Virus record (IMG/VR): IMGVR_UViG_3300005973_000002
Reading direction: 5' to 3' (one strand)
Origin: a virus
Lineage: Duplodnaviria > Caudoviricetes
Length of the DNA stretch: 64,000 nucleotides
Shown here one piece after another: positions 1 through 59,552 of the stretch. The translations under genes were made by a program, and so were the position numbers. The number at the start of each line of letters is the position of its first letter. Position 1 is the stretch's first letter. Below the pieces are notes generated by a model that saw nothing but the letters and a program-made list of their open reading frames with translations, was not told the DNA's origin and made no database searches.

Positions 1-1412
1 AATAGTGTTGGAAATAGAACTACATCACGGAGAGTGGTTTGGTTAGTCATAATGGCAACAAATCTGTCCACTCCCATTCCCAAGCCTGAACAAGGTGGCA
101 TGCCATATTCCATGCACTCAAGAAAATCTTCCTCAAGCATCATGGCCTCGTCATCGCCGTCCTCACGGGCAGCCATCTGTTCCTCCAACAACTGTCGCTG
201 TAGAACAGCGTCAGTAAGCTCCGTGTAACACTTCACAAGCTCCCAGCCATTGACAATAAACTGCCACTGCTCGACCGTGCGGCCGTCTTCGCTTCGCTGT
301 GCGAGAGGACTCATGTGAGCCGGGTAATCCTTGAGGAAAATCGGCTGAACAAGGTTTGGCCGCACCTTCTCCTTAAACATTTCGTCGATTTCCTTTGCAG
401 AACTCAACGACCAGGGCGAAATTCCAGTATATTGCTCAAATACCGCAGCATAAGACCTTACCGGAGGATCGGTAAAATCAAGCTTGGTCCCCTGATATTC
501 GACAATCATCCTCTTAATAAGAGGAGAAGCGGGATCGTTTGAATATTCATGACCGGCCGCAAAGAAAAGGTAAGACAAAAGCATCTTAAACAACTCAAGG
601 TTGTCCATATAACTCATGTAAGCGCCATACCACTCAACCGAGGTAAACTCCTGCAAGTGGGAAGGATCGACCCCTTCATTGCGAAAGTTCTTTCCGATCT
701 CATACACTCGATCAAAAGAAGCTGCAACAGCACGCTTCAAGTAAGTCTCAGGTGCAATACGAAGATAAAGATCGGCATCCAGTGCATGATGATGCGTCTG
801 AAAAGGACGAGCCTGGGCTCCTGAAGCCCGAGTCTGTAAGATCGGGGTTTCCACTTCCATGAAACCGTAGCGCTCCAGAAACTTACGAAGCTCCGAAACA
901 ATCCGAGAACGGGTCACGAAAACCTGCTTCACATCAGGGTTCATGACAATATCAAGGTAACGCTTACGAAGACGTAGCTCCGGATCAACAATTCCATCAA
1001 CCTTATTTGGGAAGGGATGGATTGGATCACGGAGAACCTTGAAAGCACGGTTTACCAAAACCGTCTTCTCGCCAGTAGTGGAAGTCCACATTTCACCTTC
1101 AATGGTGATAATACTGCCCATCTTTACAGCCTTCATCCACCCCTTGAAGCTTTCGGGGGTTTCACGCTTGTTGAAACAAAACTGAATCTTTCCAGACTGA
1201 TCGACAAGCTTTCCGAAAGCAATGGAGCCAAGTCGTCGAAAATTAACAACCCGACCCGCAAGAGTAACAGCGTGGCCGTCCCTAAGCTCAAGAGCATTGC
1301 TGGCCATCCAAGTTTGGTAGACGCCCTTTTCCACAAACTCCGAAAACTTCGGCTTGCGGACGGTCTCGGCCAACTGTTCAAGAGTACCTTCTTCATTACT
1401 TAGAGTAGACAT
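1..1412 (-). CDS. lysS: Lysyl-tRNA synthetase (class II), running off the window edge near its C-terminus
   Basis: Missed by the ORF track because there is no stop in the window. Manual translation from ATG 1412: OB-fold (TLAGRVVNFRRLGSIAFGKL), RLRKRYLDIVMN, FMEVETPIL, ARPFQTHH, LYLRIAPETYLKR, YEIGKNFRNEG, QEFTSVEWY, MEYGMPPCSGLGMGVDR, RDVVLFP. Confidence 0.96.
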   Translation of the reverse strand, partial: MSTLSNEEGTLEQLAETVRKPKFSEFVEKGVYQTWMASNALELRDGHAVTLAGRVVNFRRLGSIAFGKLVDQSGKIQFCFNKRETPESFKGWMKAVKMGSIITIEGEMWTSTTGEKTVLVNRAFKVLRDPIHPFPNKVDGIVDPELRLRKRYLDIVMNPDVKQVFVTRSRIVSELRKFLERYGFMEVETPILQTRASGAQARPFQTHHHALDADLYLRIAPETYLKRAVAASFDRVYEIGKNFRNEGVDPSHLQEFTSVEWYGAYMSYMDNLELFKMLLSYLFFAAGHEYSNDPASPLIKRMIVEYQGTKLDFTDPPVRSYAAVFEQYTGISPWSLSSAKEIDEMFKEKVRPNLVQPIFLKDYPAHMSPLAQRSEDGRTVEQWQFIVNGWELVKCYTELTDAVLQRQLLEEQMAAREDGDDEAMMLEEDFLECMEYGMPPCSGLGMGVDRFVAIMTNQTTLRDVVLFPTL

Positions 1413-20224: not shown

Positions 20225-20776
20225 TCATTGAATTTCTCCGAGTGCTAACTTGAGGATATAACGAGTAATCTCTCGGTCTTCTTCCCTGCGCTTTTGCTGT
20301 GCGTAATCCAATCCAAGTCTGTTGTAGTCCTCTTCATCCAATTTCGAAACCTTTTTGTGATATCTTTTTACCTTGTTTTCAAATGAAGTGTAATGTTCGG
20401 TTGGATTGACCAACGACAAAAATGCTTCATTTTCTCCTCGGCGCCAACGATTTGTTGTGGTGGATGCGGTACAAGATATAACCTTGCAATTAGGCCAGTT
20501 TCTAGCGCCCGCCATGCACAATAAATCTGCACCTCGGGCACTTACTGCCTTTTGCTTATATTCGCTTCCAAGCTCTTTACCTTTGGGAGACACATAAGCT
20601 CGATAAATAAAACTCTGGCTTTCCTCGTATGAATATGGCACATGAATAGCATGCAAGATCCTACTTGCACCAAGAGTCTGGGCGAGTTGATGAATACCAA
20701 TTCCACCACCAGTTACCACAAAAGCAAGTTTGGGACCTTGGTAACGATGTACGAAATCATCAAATACGTCTTGCAC
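20225..20776 (-). CDS. CinA/PncC-like domain protein
   Basis: LAFVVTGGG...LGASRIL...VPYS...AVSARGA...CTASTTTNRWRRGENEAF resembles the CinA-like domain that is usually fused to a cytidylyltransferase-fold domain. Confidence 0.6.
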   Translation of the reverse strand: MQDVFDDFVHRYQGPKLAFVVTGGGIGIHQLAQTLGASRILHAIHVPYSYEESQSFIYRAYVSPKGKELGSEYKQKAVSARGADLLCMAGARNWPNCKVISCTASTTTNRWRRGENEAFLSLVNPTEHYTSFENKVKRYHKKVSKLDEEDYNRLGLDYAQQKRREEDREITRYILKLALGEIQ

Positions 20777-21656
20777 ACTTTTCTCGCAATCTTTCCAGTT
20801 TTTCGTCTAGGCTTCGAAGGTAGTCTAATCCATACGGACCATTTTCTAAACCTTCATAAAGATGCTGTGGTAGGTCGTTTTCAATTTCTTTACAACAAGA
20901 ACCAATGCCCAGCGCCATGGCCGCAATTGAATCTACGTCGCCCGTATAATCAATACACTCTTTAAGGCATTCGCTCAAAGAATTATTTCTCAATACTGAT
21001 GAAATTGCTGCCTTGACACAGGGAATAGCATCACTAGTACAACGTTTTCCTACCGGCCAAAGATCTTTTTTATCGTTGAAAATTCTACTTGAACCACTAC
21101 CAAGTACAAGGAAATCAACCAAATTATTCTTTTTGCCATCATTGTAAAGAAAATAGTGTGTAGCCAAAGCAACTGCTTGCGAGGAAGCAATTGCATCAGG
21201 CGTATCGTGAGTCACTTGAGCTTGCATTCTAGAAAATGTTAAGACTTTATAAACGTTCGGTAGGTATCCGATCGAACACGATCTCATTGCTGCGCCGCAT
21301 TTATTTGACTTCTTCGACAGCTTGGCAAGCAACTCTTTACCAGACTCAACTTGATCTAAGATAGCTTGAAAACGACGTGAATATGCATTTCTTGCATCAC
21401 GTTTATACACCTCCACCCATTTGTTTGCGAGTTTGAGCGGAAGTGTATTTGGATCAAAATGGTCGTTTTCCAAAAGATACTCTGTTACACCAATTGACAT
21501 CTAGGTGTCATCTGTATATGAACCTGCTGGCAAATGTCCTGGAAGATTGTGCGGATAATATGTACTCAAATCATTTTTGATCTGGGTAAGTCGCTCAGGT
21601 TTTGCAAACTCAAAACCTCCTCCATAAGCATCCCCAATTCCGATTTTCACCAACAT
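20760..21656 (-). CDS. ADP-ribosylglycohydrolase (DraG/ARH family) with an in-frame TAG at 21501-21503
   Basis: An SD (AGGAG) precedes ATG 21656. Sequence reads MLVKIGIGDAYGGGFEF...GSYTDDT*MSIG..., then CGAAMR, VTHDTPDAI, GDVDSIAAM. The ORF track shows only the part after the stop. Confidence 0.9.
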
Positions 21657-29329: not shown

Positions 29330-30097
29330 TCACGGATGGAAAGTTTGCATCTGTAAAGTGCCATAGCCATCTAAACGCTTTTTCATAATTGCTACAGCAT
29401 CTGGGTTTTCATCAACCAATGTTACGTTTCGTCCATGCATAGCCCCCGCCTCGCCAAGAGTGCCTGAACCCGCAAAGAAATCCAAAAGGTGTTCTCCAGG
29501 ATTTGAGTGTACTTTTACTATGCGTTCGATTATAGCCATTGGTTTTTGAGTTGGGTAGCCTAGTCTTTCTTTACCGTTTGTTGGAACGATAGTGTTCCAC
29601 CAAACATCTGTCGGTGTTTTGCCTCGCTTAGCCTTCTCGGCACCAACAAGACCCGGAGCCATATATGGGATGCGATCTATCGCATCGTAGTTATAAGTAT
29701 ATTTTTTCAAGTCTTTTACATACCAAAGAATGTTATCATGTTTACAGGGCCACTTGGTTTTAGGTCTTCCGCCATAATCATACGCCCAAATTATTTCATT
29801 TTTGAACTTTTCTCTACCAAAAATTTTATCACAAAGCACTTTTACATAGTGAATTTCACGGTAATCCATATGAATAAAAAATGAACCATCATCTGTAAGC
29901 AATCTTTTTGCTTCTTCAATTCTTGGCTTTATCCAATCTATAAAATCATCGAATTTATCTTTGTATGAACCATGATGACTTGATTGAACCTTTTTTGTAT
30001 TAAACGGAGGATCTATTACAATTAGATTAAATTTTTTATCAGGCAACGATCGCAATATTGGCAAATTGTCCCCTTGATAAATTTTAATTGTTGGCAT
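29330..30097 (-). CDS. DNA methyltransferase (N6A/N4C, beta class)
   Basis: QGDNL, VIDPPFN, KNEIIWAY, HDNILWY, YPTQKP, LDFFAGSGT. The start at ATG 30097 overlaps the endonuclease stop. Confidence 0.93.
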   Translation of the reverse strand: MPTIKIYQGDNLPILRSLPDKKFNLIVIDPPFNTKKVQSSHHGSYKDKFDDFIDWIKPRIEEAKRLLTDDGSFFIHMDYREIHYVKVLCDKIFGREKFKNEIIWAYDYGGRPKTKWPCKHDNILWYVKDLKKYTYNYDAIDRIPYMAPGLVGAEKAKRGKTPTDVWWNTIVPTNGKERLGYPTQKPMAIIERIVKVHSNPGEHLLDFFAGSGTLGEAGAMHGRNVTLVDENPDAVAIMKKRLDGYGTLQMQTFHP

Positions 30098-30860
30098 ACA
30101 AAAAGTTTCCTTCTTTACTGTTTCTTTTGCCATTGATGATAGCTGAAATTACTGGCTGTGGAATTCCTAATACTTTTGCTGCTTCATATTGGCTTTCAAA
30201 AAATTCGGATGAACCATCGGAACGAATGTAAACTATTCGTCTTTTATTTCGTTTGGGGCTTTGTGCACGAGACATAGCTTTTTCAACATCTTCCATTTTA
30301 TGAACAAAGGTCCAACCTTTAGCATATGTGGCACGACCTTTTAGAACATTTCTAATTGCTTTTTCGTTACAACCAAGAGCTTTTGCTGCTTTTTTTTGTG
30401 CGGCAAATTTTTTTATTTCTTTTGTTTTAACATTTATAGCTATCACTGCTTTACTGCCTGGTCTATTTGCAGCGATTTTTTTACAAGTTTCTAGGGGTAA
30501 CTTCTTACCCAATTTCCTTTTACGCTGCTTTTCCTTTGTTTTTTTAGAAGTCTTTACTCCCTTTCGTCCACCTCGACCACCCTTATCAGAATTAATCATA
30601 TTTAAGTTCGGCCAGAATTGTTGAATGTATTCAAATTCAGCTATGTAAGCCTCGTCTTCAGTTGAGAACTCTTTTATTAATTCTATTGATATACTATCTT
30701 TATATTTTTTAAGCCAATTCAACTTTCTTTTACGTTTTTTATCATAAAAATGTTGTTTTAACCGTTTTTCTAAAGTTTGGCCTGTAACTCCGATATAAAA
30801 TTTAGGACTTTTCGATGAAATGATTTTATAAAGCTTGTGCATATTAATATGTACGCACAT
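30084..30860 (-). mobile_element. Free-standing GIY-YIG homing endonuclease with NUMOD3/NUMOD1-type DNA-binding repeats
   Basis: KLYKI...FYIGVT...RLKQH...EFEYI...MIN, followed by KTSKKTKEKQRKRKLG and two HTH repeats (AAKALG, AAKVLGI). Confidence 0.85.
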
Positions 30861-30868
30861 AACCTAAA

Positions 30869-30970
30869 GTTATAAGGAGGATCAATATAAATAAGAGAAA
30901 AAGTCTCTTTGGGTAACGTTTTAAGAAACAGGAGATTGTCTCCCTGAATAATGTTTATTTTTGTACTCAT
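30869..30970 (-). pseudogene. Orphaned 5' stub of the methyltransferase (34 codons, ending DPPYN)
   Basis: IQGDNLLFLKTLPKETFSLIYIDPPYN aligns with YQGDNLPILRSLPDKKFNLIVIDPPFN of the downstream gene (16/27 identical by hand count). Confidence 0.85.
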
Positions 30971-32568: not shown

Positions 32569-32581
32569 GCTTACCCAAAAT

Positions 32582-32770: not shown

Positions 32771-33196
32771 CTAAGCAACATATACTAAACCATAATATTT
32801 GCCGACAGTTCTCTTGAACTTCCATTCGCCAAGCAAAACTCCATAAGTGCAGGCAGACTTTTGAAGAGCATGGAGAAAATCGGAATCACGAATATAAAAC
32901 AACTGTTTCGTTTCTGTATGTTCCAGAATTAACTGAGTGGTGGAATTGCAACTAATAAATCGTTCAACTTTGAAAGCGGCTTTGAATGGAGAATTATCTT
33001 TCCAGGTGACATTTAGATTATTATATCTTTTTCTGTTGACATAGTCAAAGTAACTAACGACGGAAACGTTCTTACCGCACGTCCACGGGACTCCCTTTTG
33101 GGTCCATGGGATTTGATAATCTTCACTTTTTTTATTCATTTGTTTCGAGCTGCCCCCTAACCATCCTATCTTTTCGACCTTTATATTTTCGGTCAT
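32771..33196 (-). CDS. Hypothetical protein, W-K-x-N-x-PFKA family (copy 1 of 3)
   Basis: WKDNSPFKAAF...GEWKF is shared with 36627-37019 and 37012-37422. Confidence 0.7.
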   Translation of the reverse strand: MTENIKVEKIGWLGGSSKQMNKKSEDYQIPWTQKGVPWTCGKNVSVVSYFDYVNRKRYNNLNVTWKDNSPFKAAFKVERFISCNSTTQLILEHTETKQLFYIRDSDFLHALQKSACTYGVLLGEWKFKRTVGKYYGLVYVA

Positions 33197-34022
33197 AGGA
33201 TTCTAACTGACGCAAATCCAAATTTGCATCCTTGCTTTTCATTGTTCCACCGCTCAGAAACAATTCAATCATTCTATCCTTTGTAAGAATTTTGGTTGTT
33301 TTGTCATCTTTCGAGGGACCCCATCCAAGCCTTGCCAAGAAATTAAGCATTGCATCAGGATCATATCCACTGTCAATATACAATTGAAATGTTGAAGCTT
33401 GTTCTCTTTTTGAGAGTTTTTTTCCCTGATGACGCAAAAGTCCAACGTGACTATATTTTGGCAAAACGCCGCCAAGGAGGTCATACAACAAAACCTGCTT
33501 TGCTGTATTTGTAATGTGGTCCACGCCTCGAATTATATGATTGATGTCCATTTCAATATCATCAACTACAGAAGCAAAATGATAAGTGGGACTACCGTCA
33601 GATTTGATCAATGTTAGATTATCAAACCCCCGAACATTGTCCGCCCGAATGGGAATGTTGCCAGCAATATCATCAACCCAATAACTTCTGGAAAGAAAAT
33701 CACCAACAAGATTTAAATGAACTCGCTTACCATCTCGAACGGCTTTGCCACTGTCTACCAGAAACGACACGGCAGCATCATAATGCTCCATTCTTTTACT
33801 CTGGTAGTCTAAACCATCCCAATCAAGCCCAAGCCACTCAAGGCTTTTCAAAAATTGGTCAGCCCATCTCTGCTCTGACCTTTCAAGATCGGTGTCATCA
33901 ATCCTAACAAAAAACTTACCACCAGAAGCTCTGGCGGCAAGCCAATTGAAATAAGCAGTTCTCATTGTACCCAAATGAGTAGGGCCTGTAGGTGAAGGTG
34001 CGATTCTAGTAAAAAACTTCAT
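33132..34022 (-). CDS. GluRS/GluQ-RS-like class I catalytic domain lacking the anticodon-binding domain
   Basis: TRIAPSPTGPTHLG (HIGH), RIDDTDLERS, PTYHFASVVDD, HIIRGVDH, KKLSKR (KMSKS), LNFLARLGW. It ends at about 296 aa, where the anticodon domain would begin. Confidence 0.9.
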   Translation of the reverse strand: MKFFTRIAPSPTGPTHLGTMRTAYFNWLAARASGGKFFVRIDDTDLERSEQRWADQFLKSLEWLGLDWDGLDYQSKRMEHYDAAVSFLVDSGKAVRDGKRVHLNLVGDFLSRSYWVDDIAGNIPIRADNVRGFDNLTLIKSDGSPTYHFASVVDDIEMDINHIIRGVDHITNTAKQVLLYDLLGGVLPKYSHVGLLRHQGKKLSKREQASTFQLYIDSGYDPDAMLNFLARLGWGPSKDDKTTKILTKDRMIELFLSGGTMKSKDANLDLRQLESYDRKYKGRKDRMVRGQLETNE

Positions 34023-35308
34023 ATTGCGCCACTTTGTCCAAAAAATGTCCAAGCTACATTTTCCCCGGAGAGTTTTGGTTCGCCTTCGTCGAAGGTATTT
34101 CTAATAGGCAACTCATGAACCTCTGCTACAACAGAGCAATGAATGGCTTGTGCATGATCAATAGCTACATCTAGACTATCACAAGGCCCTTGAAAATTTA
34201 AACCTTCGTAAGTATGCTCAAATACAAGGCAAAATAACATTATACCATCTTCAGATGGCAGAAATCTTCTTCTGTCATCCAGCATTCTCTGTCCTTAAAA
34301 AGGACCGTTGCTCCCAAATAATCATTTGGAAAATATATTTTTCCCCACTTGCCATACTTTTGGCCAACATACTTTGGAGAGTTGCAACTGTTTTTGATGG
34401 CCAAAACATACCATATCATTTTGAAAGATCAACAGGAATGCGAACCTTACGGAGATAGTCAGCAATTTGCTGAATGGCGTGTTCAACAACGCCTTCGGAC
34501 GGATTTGTGATCATATCCATCCTGAAGTGTTCTCCTGGGCCCTGAACACCCCAACTGCAAAGCATGAAAACATCATCGTCTTCCATAACGAATGAAATTC
34601 TACCGTGATTGGACTGCGGAAAATCAAATCCTTGATAGTAGACGATCATCTCTCCCTCGCCAATTTCAACATCACTATATTGCCTTGTTTCAGCAACACA
34701 TGAATATGTCCAAGAAAGACCTTGGCGGGCAAGATGTTTACATGCGATACCAATATATTCACATGTTTTATTATGATTCACGTTTTTCTCCAAACAACTG
34801 ATCATAATAAACAAACCCAATGAGTTCTTGTTTATCCTTTTCAAATTTGCCGCAATCCTGTTCCCATTTTTCCTTTAGCTCAATGTAATCTTCGTAAGCT
34901 TTATCTGATCGACCAGTAGGACCATAATGCAAATTTGGGACTTTTCCTTCATTATTATCTTTAAGTTTTTTATTTATAATACCTCTGCCGTTGAAGGGGA
35001 AATAATCTGTATGCAGCCCCATGTGCCCTTGCCATAAAGCATGTGTAGTAATTAAGCGAATTTTATCATCGTCTGTCAGTTTATAGACGTTGTATTTACG
35101 ATACCAGCCAAAATCATATTCTGTATCAATATCATCAGGGTCTTCGGCTACTGATACAAATTCTTCAAGCAAATCAAAATAGCATATTTCATTTTCATGT
35201 AACAAAACTCCACTAAGTGGTCCATCCCAATAATCCAAATGCCAGAGAATTTGCACGTTTTCAAGTTGTTTCATTTTTTTTGCTTTCCAATTTGTTTCAT
35301 CTTTTTAG

Positions 35309-35383
35309 CGAGACCTGTGGGATTTGAACCCACATCACTCCGGGTTAAAGCCGGCCGCATTACCAATTTTCTGCCAAGGTCCC
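35309..35383 (-). tRNA. tRNA with anticodon TTA (ochre-suppressor type; Gln/Glu-like loop)
   Basis: GGGACCT/AGGTCTC acceptor, G73, anticodon stem CCGG/CCGG, loop CT-TTA-AC (anticodon 35346-35348), T arm GTGGG-TTCAAAT-CCCAC. Confidence 0.85.
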
Positions 35384-35387
35384 ATTT

Positions 35388-35637
35388 GTGGCCGCCCCAG
35401 GAGTCGAACCTGGCTGTCCCACGACTGACGACCAAACTGTCCTATCTGCTTTGACGGGTCCTTCCCCCGTTTCTATGGCCACTTGAACTAACAACATTTC
35501 ATAATCTCATGGAAGCCACACACTTCCAGCAGGAATTGAACCTGCGCCGGGAACACTTGCCACTGTCGCCGAGCCAACTACTAGTTGTTATGTACGTCAT
35601 ATCGCCGTGCGGCAAAAACAGATAGGAACAGAACTTG
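35388..35637 (-). ncRNA. Unidentified structured RNA with two T-loop hairpins (YrlA/tRNA-like modules)
   Basis: A long-range helix of about 20 bp (35613-35637 with 35433-35453); GCAGG-TTCAATT-CCTGC stacked on TGGAAGT/GCTTCCA; CCAGG-TTCGACT-CCTGG; GTGGCC/GGCCAC. Confidence 0.6.
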
Positions 35638-35641
35638 TATG

Positions 35642-35998
35642 CTAACTTGTTATTTTTTTGTAACCCCTTCCTGCTACTTTCAAGTTTGCGCAAAGTTTAG
35701 CAGTTGCTTCACTTGGCTCGATTGTCAAGGCTGTGTACTGATTGATATCAGGCTCATAGAAAAGTGAATGCCTTAGTCCCTGGCTTTCGGTCAAGCAAAC
35801 AAATGCCTTCAATGCCGCTTCGTTTTTAACTCCCAAAACTACAATGGTGTTTGAATTAGTATACCACTTTCGCTCCTCTTCGGGGAAGTCGTGTGTAAAC
35901 TGATCCTTGGCATGAATGCTTTGTGCGATTTGATAGCCAGGCGAAATGTCCTGGCGAACCAATACATACATTTTCATTGTTGGTTGACTTTGCATCAT
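35642..35998 (-). CDS. Peptidyl-tRNA hydrolase 2 (PTH2)-like protein
   Basis: KMYVLVRQDISPGYQIAQSIHA, TIVVLGV, FYEPD, TALTIEP, LCANL. Confidence 0.75.
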   Translation of the reverse strand: MMQSQPTMKMYVLVRQDISPGYQIAQSIHAKDQFTHDFPEEERKWYTNSNTIVVLGVKNEAALKAFVCLTESQGLRHSLFYEPDINQYTALTIEPSEATAKLCANLKVAGRGYKKITS

Positions 35999-36626: not shown

Positions 36627-37019
36627 TTAGGCTAAGCAAACACTTAGGTATCGTCCTGATTTACGGAAAACCCATTCACCCACAAACACACCAGCAATAG
36701 CCGGCAGCGTTTTAAGTAGTTGAACAAAGTCTTCTTCCTTCATGACATATTCATAACCGTTTTCGGTATCATGAAGAACTGCTTGACAACTCGTACTCTG
36801 GTTTGAACTGTAAAGATGCGAAAGACTGAGCCCTGCCTTAAACGGCTTGTTTTCTTTCCATTCAATTGGTTCGGATTTGCGAATGTAGCCATACCCTCCA
36901 ATATTTGGATGCGCCATGTCGCAAGTTTCAGAATCTTTTTTGGGGCATTGACGTGGAACACATCCATGCTTTCCTACCACGTGAGGAACCAAAAAATTTT
37001 TATCGTCTTTTTCAGTCAT
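36627..37019 (-). CDS. Hypothetical protein, W-K-x-N-x-PFKA family (copy 2)
   Basis: EPIEWKENKPFKAGL...GEWVF; the start ATG overlaps the upstream TGA (ATGACTGA). Confidence 0.75.
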   Translation of the reverse strand: MTEKDDKNFLVPHVVGKHGCVPRQCPKKDSETCDMAHPNIGGYGYIRKSEPIEWKENKPFKAGLSLSHLYSSNQSTSCQAVLHDTENGYEYVMKEEDFVQLLKTLPAIAGVFVGEWVFRKSGRYLSVCLA

Positions 37020-37422
37020 TGTTAAATTCATTAGCCTTTTCGGCAGGAACTATTGAAAGAAAGCCACCATAACTATGAAAAACCCATTCGCCAAGACAAA
37101 CACCCATAATCCACGTTGTTTTATCCATCATTTCATTGAAAAGATCTTCGCCAACATAATAAGTGGCCTCTGTTTCCGTATTTCTCATCAAGAACTGAAC
37201 TGACGAACGTTTGTTTACAACCCTATCAAATCTCAGAGCGGCTTTGAACGGCTTATTTTTCCTCCACTCAATTGGCTCGCCATCGGCTCGTTTGTTGATG
37301 GTCCAATCGTATCTTCCAGGCCAATGTGTTTATTTTCGCTTGGGGCGTCGCCAAGGAACAGAACCATCTGGGTAAAATGGAATTTCATCCTCATAAGGAT
37401 TTTTGAGCTTTCTATTTGTCAT
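37012..37422 (-). CDS. Hypothetical protein, W-K-x-N-x-PFKA family (copy 3), with an in-frame TAA at 37330-37332
   Basis: MTNRK...RRPKRK*THWPG...EPIEWRKNKPFKAALRF...GEWVFH; 137 codons, matching the length of its paralogs. Not in the ORF track. Confidence 0.85.
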
Positions 37423-40818: not shown

Positions 40819-40829
40819 CTATTATTTAT

Positions 40830-41181
40830 TGGACCCGATCGGAATTGAACCGATGTCCTCAAGATCGCCTAAAAAAACTTCTACGTTACCTAGTTTGATT
40901 TTCAGATTACCGGTCCGAGGTATCAGACAACCAACCGGGTTCTTTCATTTGAAATCTTGATCAGACAGCCAATAGAAATCTAACTCTAGTCTAATCCAGT
41001 CCTAATAACGACGCCTTATAGAATGCAAGGACACTCAAGCTATAAGACGGCTCTCATCAAGCAGCGAGAGCAAGAGGTGCATTGTCTGCATTTATAATCG
41101 TTTATTGGATTTAAGTGGTTCTAAACACCCACCGTAACGCCATTTTTTCTTCTTACCCCAAGTCGAAACCAGTACGGGCCC
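40830..41181 (-). ncRNA. ssrA: tmRNA (352 nt), tag peptide ADNAPLALAA
   Basis: 5' GGGCCCGTACTGGTTTCGAC; acceptor with G3.U70; ATAAAT then GCA GAC AAT GCA CCT CTT GCT CTC GCT GCT TGA (41057-41089); 3' GGAC-ATCGG-TTCAATT-CCGAT-CGGGTCC-A. Confidence 0.95.
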
Positions 41182-56806: not shown

Positions 56807-56926
56807 CTCCAGAGGAGGGATTCGAACCCCCGACTAATCAGCTATCTTTGAAACCATCGGATTCGCATTGCAACAAGCTTTATCCGATTCCCACAACCGA
56901 TCGCTCTACCATTGAGCTACTCTAGA
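56807..56926 (-). tRNA. tRNA-Asn-type body with a 48-nt insertion in the anticodon loop
   Basis: TCTAGAG/CTCTGGA, G73, GCTC/GAGC D arm, ATCGG/CTGAT stem, GGGGG-TTCGAAT-CCCTC. The loop is 55 nt instead of 7. Confidence 0.82.
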
Positions 56927-57045
56927 ACGACCAGAATCAGCAGACCTGTGGAGTCTCCAATGACCTGGCCTAGTCGCATTCCTCAGTCCACAATAAAGGT
57001 CTGCGAGTAGATTTTTACTTTAGAAAGAACAGACGCAAATGTTTG

Positions 57046-58452
57046 CTATAAACATGGATTAACAATAATATCTTCAAGTCTTTCAACCATAACCGCTGGG
57101 TCTGTAGAAATTAGATGAAAGGTAGCACAATCATCAAAATCTGTGTTGTTAACTGATGCCCCAAAGACTGTCAATGATTCTCCGTGCGTAAACGAATTAC
57201 ACATTTCCATTTCACGTACTTCTGACAAACCTCTTGTAGAACTTCTATATGTTTGCCCTCTTTCATCAGTAAACATTATCATAATGCGAATTGAACCTTC
57301 CCGCCAAGATAAACCTCTTCTGGTGGGTGAGAGCATATCAGCTATACCATCACCATTTGAATCAATACCGTGTTCAATTTCACCAGTTGCGCTTTCATAA
57401 ACTGCATCCCAAGTTGGCTCCTGTGCACCACCATCAGCATCCAAACTAGATAGCCTACTATTAAAGCTAGTGAAATCAGAAAAATCAAGTTCTACAAATG
57501 CTCTTCTGTCTAATGCGCCTCGGCCAGAAATAAGAACCAATGCAAACCTAAATTCGGGATTTCCTGCATACAGTGCTGAAAAAGTTGTTGTTGCTTCACG
57601 AACAGCTGCAATTGTAGAAGACATTGAACCAGAAATATCGATCAAATAAAGAATGTCAAAACCATTTGGTTCTATTGTTATACACACCCCATCTTCATAA
57701 GCACCATCAATGCATCCATCACAATCATCGTCGACCCTATTACAGGCAAGCAAACCAACTTCTGGCACCGGCGGAATTTCACCATCGCATTCAGACCAAG
57801 TTCCTCCGGTTTCACAAACTTGACGTCCTTTTCGACAAGGTGAGATAATCGAATCTATATTAGGCCCAGAATAGCACCATTGTGATAAAGGCCCTGTGGA
57901 ATCACTATTTTCATCTACCTCACCATCACAATCATTGTCAATGTCATCACAATCTTCTGGAACGCAATTTAAAAAAGTACAAGAGCCTTCAATGCATGCA
58001 AATCCTCTTGGACACATATCATCAAATTCACAAATATCTACACAATAGCCATTGCCTGTAATGGAATCAGTGATACATTCTTGCTCACCAGAACTTTCTT
58101 CATTGTTGCAGTCTTGAGTATTTTCGCATTCAGTAAAACGATCTGATCTGACGCAAGAACCCATACGGCAGTCTGCACCTTCACCACATGGTGGCCCGTT
58201 ACCACATCTGCAAGAGCCATCTATGCATTGGTCAGAATCCATAATCGGACAAAAATTTCCACAACCCCCGCAATTTCTGAAATCAGTTCTTAGTCTAGCA
58301 AGATCATCACTTTCACACGGGGGTCCAGCATCCGTGTCTGTTATAGACATCAATCCAGAATCAGAGAGTGGCGGTATTAGTGGTATTCCTTCTTGGTTGG
58401 AACACGCAAACAAACCAATGCAAAACACACTTAAAACCGCTACTTTTTTCAT
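57046..58452 (-). CDS. Lipoprotein with myxobacterial-type Cys-rich repeats and a C-terminal vWA domain
   Basis: Lipobox GLFAC; NCGGCGNFC; EDCDDIDNDCDGEVDE and CNRVDDDCDGCID repeats; MIDAS LIDISGSMS; FTDERG. Confidence 0.85.
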   Translation of the reverse strand: MKKVAVLSVFCIGLFACSNQEGIPLIPPLSDSGLMSITDTDAGPPCESDDLARLRTDFRNCGGCGNFCPIMDSDQCIDGSCRCGNGPPCGEGADCRMGSCVRSDRFTECENTQDCNNEESSGEQECITDSITGNGYCVDICEFDDMCPRGFACIEGSCTFLNCVPEDCDDIDNDCDGEVDENSDSTGPLSQWCYSGPNIDSIISPCRKGRQVCETGGTWSECDGEIPPVPEVGLLACNRVDDDCDGCIDGAYEDGVCITIEPNGFDILYLIDISGSMSSTIAAVREATTTFSALYAGNPEFRFALVLISGRGALDRRAFVELDFSDFTSFNSRLSSLDADGGAQEPTWDAVYESATGEIEHGIDSNGDGIADMLSPTRRGLSWREGSIRIMIMFTDERGQTYRSSTRGLSEVREMEMCNSFTHGESLTVFGASVNNTDFDDCATFHLISTDPAVMVERLEDIIVNPCL

Positions 58453-59471: not shown

Positions 59472-59552
59472 ACAAAGAACTCGGATTCGAACCGAGAATA
59501 CCTTTACAGGCGGCGCAAGTTGCGAAGTGTATACCATTTCCACCATTCTTTG
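59472..59552 (-). tRNA. Type II tRNA-like RNA with a collapsed anticodon arm
   Basis: Perfect CAAAGAA/TTCTTTG acceptor, GGTGGAAATGGTATACAC D region, GCCT-GTAA-AGGT variable arm, CTCGG-TTCGAAT-CCGAG. The anticodon arm is only CGCA-ACT-TGCG. Confidence 0.7.

Follow-up and report, generated by a model that had tools for sequence, protein, structure and literature searches.

The 64,000-nucleotide stretch of viral DNA analysed here (the window; IMG/VR record IMGVR_UViG_3300005973_000002) encodes on its minus strand a tRNA with the anticodon UUA (35309..35383), which is complementary to the stop codon UAA and makes this tRNA one of the ochre-suppressor type. The anticodon looks selected when diverged homologues are compared, and we see about an even chance that this genuine phage gene, kept by selection, yields a weak suppressor of UAA and UAG during infection. 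Within the 110 kb that were read, the genome is not recoded. The source is a giant phage of about 460 kb from hypersaline lakes, which is rich in translation genes and uses the standard code.

The tRNA gene is supported by ARAGORN, Rfam, the minimum-free-energy fold and a homologue. ARAGORN, proposed as a check in an earlier reading of the letters alone (the sequence-only reading), called a tRNA-Stop with anticodon (tta) at 35308-35383 on the minus strand, giving a length of 75-76 nt. A whole-window search with the full RF00005 model matched 35309-35383(-) with 54.4 bits against a gathering threshold of 29 (model positions 1-71, E = 6e-9), and the cloverleaf is the minimum-free-energy fold of the 75-nt molecule. 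As read from the sequence, the acceptor stem has 7 bp, one G-U included, the D stem has 3 bp and a G-A mismatch with a D loop of 11 nt, and the anticodon stem consists of four Watson-Crick pairs and a further G-A mismatch. The variable loop has 5 nt, and the T loop, UUCAAAU, is of the UUCxAxU type. The anticodon loop (C32-U33-U34-U35-A36-A37-C38) has the usual seven nucleotides, U33 and a purine at position 37; like the T loop and the acceptor stem, it is that of a class I cloverleaf. The anticodon reads TAA on the plus strand at 35346-35348, and the discriminator, G73, lies at 35309 and is not followed by an encoded CCA. The complete cloverleaf with the loop CU-UUA-AC and G73, described in the sequence-only reading, is thus upheld by the ARAGORN call, the Rfam match and the fold; its coordinates and loop were correct, and only the minus strand had been omitted. 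A scan for promoters and terminators around the gene gave nothing above shuffled sequences, which fits the processing of the tRNA from a long transcript.

An exact-sequence look-up of a neighbouring protein found it on 19 contigs, among them contigs of 461, 381 and 181 kb from different samples. The contig was walked by five exact-protein look-ups to about 45 kb past the window's end, which gave a seamless stretch of 109.5 kb with zero mismatches in the overlaps; about 110 of 461 kb were read in this way. In the window, the G+C content is 40%, all substantial genes lie on one strand, and ARAGORN predicts six RNA genes, all of them on the minus strand. When the locus and the tRNA were compared by blastn with 50,697 phage records, no relative was found, and the tRNA gave only partial matches of mixed isotype, none covering 80% of its length.

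Besides the genes discussed below, the window encodes a lysyl-tRNA synthetase (LysRS; 3..1412, minus strand, cut by the window edge; NF001756, 451 bits; TIGR00499, 413 bits), nicotinamide/NAD salvage genes and homing endonucleases. A tRNA array beyond the window brings the total of the phage to more than 55 tRNAs, and its own tRNAs include those for Gln (ttg, ctg), Glu (ttc, ctc), Lys (ttt, ctt) and Tyr (gta). AsnRS is also encoded beyond the window, as is a CCA-adding enzyme, the gene of which is in two pieces split by a GIY-YIG gene (PolyA_pol matches in L060). Several tRNAs of the array (L058/L059, about +17 to +36 kb), namely Asn(att), His(atg) and Leu(aag), have A34 anticodons of a kind not usual in bacteria. 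Another tRNA of this kind, Ser(act), is located in the window at 59472-59552; these might be variants escaping anticodon nucleases. The array also contains a 94-nt tRNA-Ile(tat), and a tRNA that has 51 extra nucleotides inserted into its anticodon loop (56807-56926, minus strand) was detected by Rfam (50.5 bits) and missed by ARAGORN. In run X6, a microbial-mat metagenome with a relative about 96-98% identical to the phage, the contig skips 870 bp at 30005-30876, which removes a GIY-YIG homing-endonuclease gene (30084-30860) and represents a presence/absence polymorphism of a mobile gene.

The comparison that bears on selection came from five related viral contigs, obtained with the core of a glutamyl-tRNA synthetase encoded near the tRNA (GluRS core, see below) as a query. 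One of them, the 5-kb contig L011, has about 70% protein identity to the window and the same gene order, and carries two tta tRNAs, both of which recur in L112, a contig of a variant strain from another sample. The first is homologous to the tRNA of the window, with 61 of 71 aligned bases identical in L011. Stem differences in the homologues of L011 and L112 comprise double compensatory changes at three pairs and, at two others, changes on one side by which pairing is retained; no pair is lost, and 97.5% of the cells of the alignment are paired. In L011, G-U takes the place of the G-A mismatch that tops the anticodon stem, and the discriminator is U there instead of G, while the loop C-U-UUA-A is unchanged. 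Thus, UUA is kept while the stems co-vary, as expected of a suppressor, in the two lineages known. The second tta tRNA of L011 has an unrelated body, the nearest to which are tRNA-Arg genes of a relative, and in L112 its changes improve the acceptor stem and leave the anticodon as it is. The presence of a second, unrelated UUA tRNA in these contigs points to selection for the decoding of UAA.

Other relatives carry tRNAs of the amber-suppressor type, with the anticodon CUA: two in G001, a 359-kb IMG/VR record (at 221822 and 28369), and one in G002 (at 40883). ARAGORN labels them as Pyl, and the code looks standard in their sampled 20-kb regions; among the tRNAs fetched from G001 there is neither tRNA-Gln nor tRNA-Glu. 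Together with the UUA tRNAs, they mark suppressor-type tRNAs as a feature shared within this group of phages. Pattern scans of viral, metagenomic and cellular sequences revealed no further homologue with a possible sense anticodon. In viral contigs, neither the exact anticodon/T-arm pattern nor the first D-arm pattern had a match. The D-arm pattern matched four times by chance in cellular genomes, never in a tRNA, and when the search was loosened, 47 matches in metagenomes and 4 in viruses resulted, with a tRNA only in the already known L011 contig. In another relative, the 101-kb G003, scattered short ORFs each correspond to a different part of the major capsid protein of T4 type (Pfam Gp23); these ORFs (56897-57100, 90217-90378 and 29529-29981) are free-standing.

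The isotype of the UUA tRNA was sought by nearest-neighbour comparisons among 58, 48 and then 173 giant-phage tRNAs, which gave no consistent answer. Its nearest neighbours among the 173 are mixed (Lys, Asp, Ala, Met), and Gln and Glu are not near the top. It did not arise by recent copying of the tRNA-Gln, tRNA-Glu, tRNA-Lys or tRNA-Tyr of this phage, and a recent anticodon mutant of its tRNA-Gln or tRNA-Glu is ruled out, since the body is not close to either. An origin from Gln or Glu had been suggested in the sequence-only reading from the anticodon; it finds no counterpart in the body, which is close to neither of these isotypes nor to any other. As the body matches no isotype, the charging of the tRNA is not assured. 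LysRS, GlnRS or GluRS are candidate charging enzymes; judged by the identity rules of E. coli, the tRNA lacks the D-arm features used by GluRS, which speaks against a dedicated link to the GluRS core. For the inserted amino acid, glutamine is our first, still tentative, guess; lysine and glutamate come next and rank equally, and another amino acid, or none, seems only slightly less likely.

Directly upstream of the tRNA lies a conserved non-coding stretch of about 250 nt (35388..35637, minus strand), with counterparts at L011:3612-3877 and L112:711-976. Its 3' part is a tRNA-like minihelix composed of a 7-bp acceptor-like stem and a T arm, and its last 95 nt or so are nearly identical between the window and L011 and L112, though the proteins of these phages share only about 70% identity. 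At its end, L011 and L112 have ACCA and the window has ACA, and one stem pair changes from G-U to A-U. Rfam returned weak tRNA-like matches for it and no fitting family. It is probably co-transcribed with the UUA tRNA. On its other side, a PTH2-like peptidyl-tRNA hydrolase is encoded (35642..35998, minus strand; PF01981, E = 1.3e-8), a homologue of which, 74% identical, occupies the same position in L011. Searches of the flanking small genes against PHROGs and Pfam gave nothing useful.

The position beside a conserved tRNA-like RNA, about 40-50 kb from the main tRNA array, would suit a molecule that does not decode at all. It could be a relic that has lost its activity, or an RNA that has the shape of a tRNA and a different task, for example to divert defences aimed at tRNAs, to serve as a signal for processing or to work together with the RNA next to it. 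UUA would then be irrelevant to translation. The body, which is like no isotype, and the lack of an encoded CCA, which many tRNAs of the main array have, fit this explanation as well. The loop C-U-UUA-A, invariant while the stems co-vary, speaks against it, and, were the anticodon of no importance, one would hardly expect a relative to carry another, independent UUA tRNA. We consider a non-decoding role unlikely, though it is the strongest of the alternatives.

The 110 kb were searched for pairs of coding-like open frames with only one stop between them. Three cases were found beyond adjacent genes: TAA at 37330-37332, TAG at 21501-21503 and TGA at about 76024. The other same-frame gene pairs in the window were rejected as ordinary adjacent genes, each with its own start. 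The first two cases are the only ones with UAA or UAG in the 110 kb that have a strong coding signal on both sides. The TAA is codon 31 of a gene of 137 codons (37012..37422, minus strand), supported by its translation, a paralogue and the coding score. The frame is 34% identical to the adjacent paralogue, with the similarity running across the TAA, and the coding score is positive on both sides; the 46 codons that follow the TAA are start-less and contain conserved residues. The homologous codon in L011 encodes Glu, and the L011 copy ends after 42 codons. The TAG lies in an ADP-ribosylglycohydrolase gene (20760..21656, minus strand), immediately after the TDDT motif. The PF03747 match covers residues 7-251, across the TAG, and Gln is found at this position in every one of the 13 homologues aligned, one of them 87% identical.

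Each of these two stops is one first-base change away from a sense codon, and the two genes are, as judged from sequence, candidate targets of read-through or young pseudogenes. A UUA anticodon reads UAA and, via wobble at U34, also UAG, as established by classical ochre-suppressor genetics; thus, both stops could be clients of the tRNA. The third case, at window-equivalent ~76024 (L057/L058, about 12 kb past the window's end), is inside an intein-bearing peptidase and joins a 276-aa ORF to a LAGLIDADG-bearing ORF in the same frame (322 aa called, 363 codons open). This TGA is not readable by the UUA tRNA, and no opal suppressor for it was found in the 110 kb. An in-frame TGA without a matching suppressor in the same DNA indicates that the interrupted genes may equally be ordinary young pseudogenes, the result of recent nonsense mutations in a near-clonal population.

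The phage also encodes proteins and RNAs that deal with termination and its failures. A tmRNA (40827..41181, minus strand) was identified by ARAGORN and Rfam (127 bits); its tag, ADNAPLALAA, is terminated by UGA UGA, the one stop that is not readable by the UUA tRNA. Bacterial tmRNA tags commonly end in UAA. About 36 kb past the window's end, an RF1-like release factor of 226 aa is encoded (L060:8793-9473, window-equivalent ~100036-100716, minus strand), which scores 192 bits with prfA against 128 with prfB and has both the RF1-type P-x-T motif (PPT) and GGQ. Its match starts at model position 105, and domain 1 is missing; it has these motifs and falls short of the four domains of a class-I RF1. 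Searches for release factors and for the terminase C-domain in the relatives found none.

If the tRNA acts as a suppressor, it would be cut from a polycistronic transcript, receive its CCA from the CCA-adding enzyme of the phage or of the host, and then be charged with an amino acid. During infection it would compete with release factors at UAA and, via U34 wobble, at UAG. Eggertsson and Soll are said to have described in 1988 that ochre suppressors with the UUA anticodon also read UAG and are weak. The outcome here would be low-level read-through, not codon reassignment, with normal TAA terminators only mildly affected. Such leakiness could buffer or permit nonsense codons in phage genes, with the TAA at 37330 and the TAG at 21501 as candidate clients, and the RF1-like factor, the tmRNA with its UGA-UGA tag end and PTH2 could set the level of read-through or clean up after it. 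Conditional, partial suppression, as proposed in the sequence-only reading, is consistent with a UUA anticodon conserved under structural selection and with two in-frame UAR codons in genes that are otherwise intact. The end of the tmRNA tag is also in its favour, as is the share of TAA among terminators, which is 36% versus 62% in the relative L010, of the same G+C content.

Several observations stand against read-through. One is the in-frame TGA in the same 110 kb; another is the truncation of the L011 homologue of the TAA-containing gene. TAA is not depleted as a terminator, ending 82 of the 203 genes called in the 110 kb (40%), and the excess of tandem stops after TAA or TAG is not significant (p = 0.15 in the window; p = 0.07 in the 110 kb). 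The RF1-like factor would counteract suppression at exactly UAA and UAG, the tRNA body matches no isotype, and the DNA did not turn up in any RNA run. A weak suppressor active during infection nevertheless remains, in our judgement, the explanation to which about half of the probability belongs.

The same toolkit could be viewed as protection. The tRNA might be directed at the host, making its ribosomes read through UAA, usually the commonest bacterial stop, so that host proteins would be corrupted and the rescue systems loaded, while the phage would be shielded by its own tmRNA, PTH2 and RF1-like factor. That these termination and rescue genes occur in one phage, that the tmRNA tag ends in UGA UGA and that TGA is the commonest terminator of the phage in the window (42-44%) would all agree with such a weapon. 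The frequency of TAA at the ends of the phage's own genes argues against it, and a comparable mechanism is not known from any phage; we consider it rather improbable.

A GluRS catalytic core of 296 aa is encoded 1.3 kb downstream of the tRNA (33132..34022, minus strand) and might be of importance for its charging. It matches TIGR00464 (gltX) with 263 bits and GluQRS with 171 bits, and in the PDB it matches GluRS chains (E = 7e-55) better than YadB (E = 7e-26); a HIGH-like motif and KLSKR are present. Since the match ends at model position 315 of 470, the anticodon-binding domain is missing, and a GluRS-like protein with catalytic motifs and without this domain is neither a full GluRS nor a GluQRS. 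Its location near the UUA tRNA is a lead on charging. In L007, the gene for the core comes immediately after three tRNA-Glu genes, and in three relatives with the core there is no tRNA within 10 kb of it. The ordinary tRNA-Glu genes of the phage, which the enzyme could serve, are an argument against a dedicated link. Homologues of the GluRS core and of an equally short RF1-like protein occur in uncultured megaphages of 480-640 kb (LR745206.1 and others). LR745206.1 (634 kb) has both genes; of its 61 tRNAs, 58 were typed and none of these is a suppressor, which indicates that the two proteins are not a module dedicated to such a tRNA. A dedicated module of tRNA, GluRS and RF1 is thus weakened by this megaphage and by the three relatives without a nearby tRNA. 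More far-reaching, and in our opinion a long shot, is a tunable system of UAA/UAG read-through, in which the GluRS core would charge the UUA tRNA, an orthogonal tRNA with a body like that of no sense tRNA, independently of its anticodon, the RF1-like factor would oppose it at the same two codons, and tmRNA and PTH2, which the UUA tRNA could not perturb, would serve as a backup. If true, the ratio of the tRNA to RF1 would switch or grade termination at UAA and UAG during infection, and the phage would represent an intermediate towards TAA/TAG reassignment not yet seen in any phage.

The genetic code of the DNA read is standard by every measure applied. In the window, code 11 yields 132 gene calls over 88% of the DNA, with TGA as the stop of 56, TAA of 49 and TAG of 27; the 110 kb have 203 calls over 85% of the DNA, with TGA as the stop of 84, TAA of 82 and TAG of 37. 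When any single stop was treated as sense, only trivial extensions were obtained, equal to those on the non-coding strand. In code 11, the large terminase (544 aa) is intact, and so is every larger gene in the 110 kb. Low code-11 density, many in-frame stops and a depleted terminator, the signs of an alternative code, are all absent from the 110 kb. The view that genes here end normally at TAA, TAG or TGA and that there is no genome-wide recoding, already held in the sequence-only reading, agrees with these counts. It is conceivable that TAA, with or without TAG, is a sense codon in a late or structural block within the other 350 kb or so, given that about 110 of the 461 kb were read and that alternative-code phages keep their early genes standard and carry the cognate suppressor (bioRxiv 10.1101/2021.08.26.457843). 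Still, the terminase and the larger genes are intact, TAA is a frequent terminator, and a search among 10,754 jumbo phages found none that is TAA-recoded (PMC13037316), which makes a recoded block very improbable.

An assembly or sequencing artefact in the anticodon, which the sequence-only reading had named as one condition that would undo its interpretation, is excluded for practical purposes by its identity in the assemblies of at least five samples and in the contigs of three further runs and by the same anticodon in a diverged homologue from two other samples. The tta tRNA is present in all five assemblies that cover the site (L001-L005, from different samples and at least 99.995% identical), identity to the window is 99.995-100% for the six stretches that were fetched, and Logan contigs of three further hypersaline-lake runs have zero differences over 17.8 kb. 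The pieces listed for the diverged relative X6 cover none of the three sites checked. The sole difference between the assemblies is a 1-base T insertion at 32575 in the 181-kb Logan contig and in L001/L002. The lake samples hold one near-clonal phage; they therefore exclude an error and carry no information on selection.

Among known suppressors, the classical ochre suppressors of E. coli, reportedly listed by Eggertsson and Soll in 1988 as supB (glnU), supC (tyrT) and supG/supL (lysT), resemble the tRNA described here in that UUA reads UAA and, by wobble, UAG; theirs are weak and are tolerated while UAA still terminates. They are single-base mutants of identifiable sense tRNAs, whereas here the gene is stable and conserved and has no recognisable parent isotype.

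In phages, a tRNA Sup:UUA is reported for the cultivated 499-kb megaphage G (PMC12484599), and the Klebsiella jumbo phage phiKp24 has a tRNA-Sup-TTA (PMC8386662). As in these two, the UUA tRNA belongs to a very large, standard-code phage with many tRNAs and has neither a known target nor an assigned amino acid. In contrast to them, it lies outside the main array, its compensatory conservation is shown and candidate UAA/UAG sites are named; no sequence relationship to either was detectable by blastn among the 50,697 phage records. The Xanthomonas jumbo phage XacN1, likewise of standard code and with a near-complete tRNA set, has two suppressor tRNAs with the anticodon CUA, for which its authors found no target genes (PMC5852040). 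Those are amber and the present one is ochre, and, while read-through of terminal stops revealed nothing in XacN1, two internal stops interrupt recognisable genes here. The Zeta crAss-like phages have suppressors that are seemingly unused (PMC12386605).

In alternative-code phages, suppressor tRNAs accompany the reassignment of TAG to Gln or of TGA to Trp, and a model has been proposed in which standard-code relatives gain a suppressor before recoding (bioRxiv 10.1101/2021.08.26.457843; PMC9523058). The phage studied here shares with them a suppressor tRNA together with aminoacyl-tRNA synthetase and release-factor genes. It differs in the absence of recoding and in the codon concerned, since TAA is not known to be recoded in any phage (PMC13037316). 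The release factor of recoded phages spares the recoded codon (bioRxiv 10.1101/2021.08.26.457843), whereas the RF1-like protein recognises the very codons of the tRNA, which is the opposite pairing.

Suppressor tRNAs in standard-code jumbo phages, such as phage G, phiKp24 and XacN1, are thus a recurring and unexplained phenomenon. To the earlier reports, the present analysis adds evidence of selection on the anticodon, two candidate sites and a co-encoded RF1-like factor. The TAA at 37330 and the TAG at 21501 offer defined targets for mass-spectrometry and reporter experiments. Should read-through be absent, the tRNA would be another unused tRNA of the suppressor type; should it be true, it would support the proposed route from the standard to an alternative code for TAA, the stop for which no recoded phage is known.
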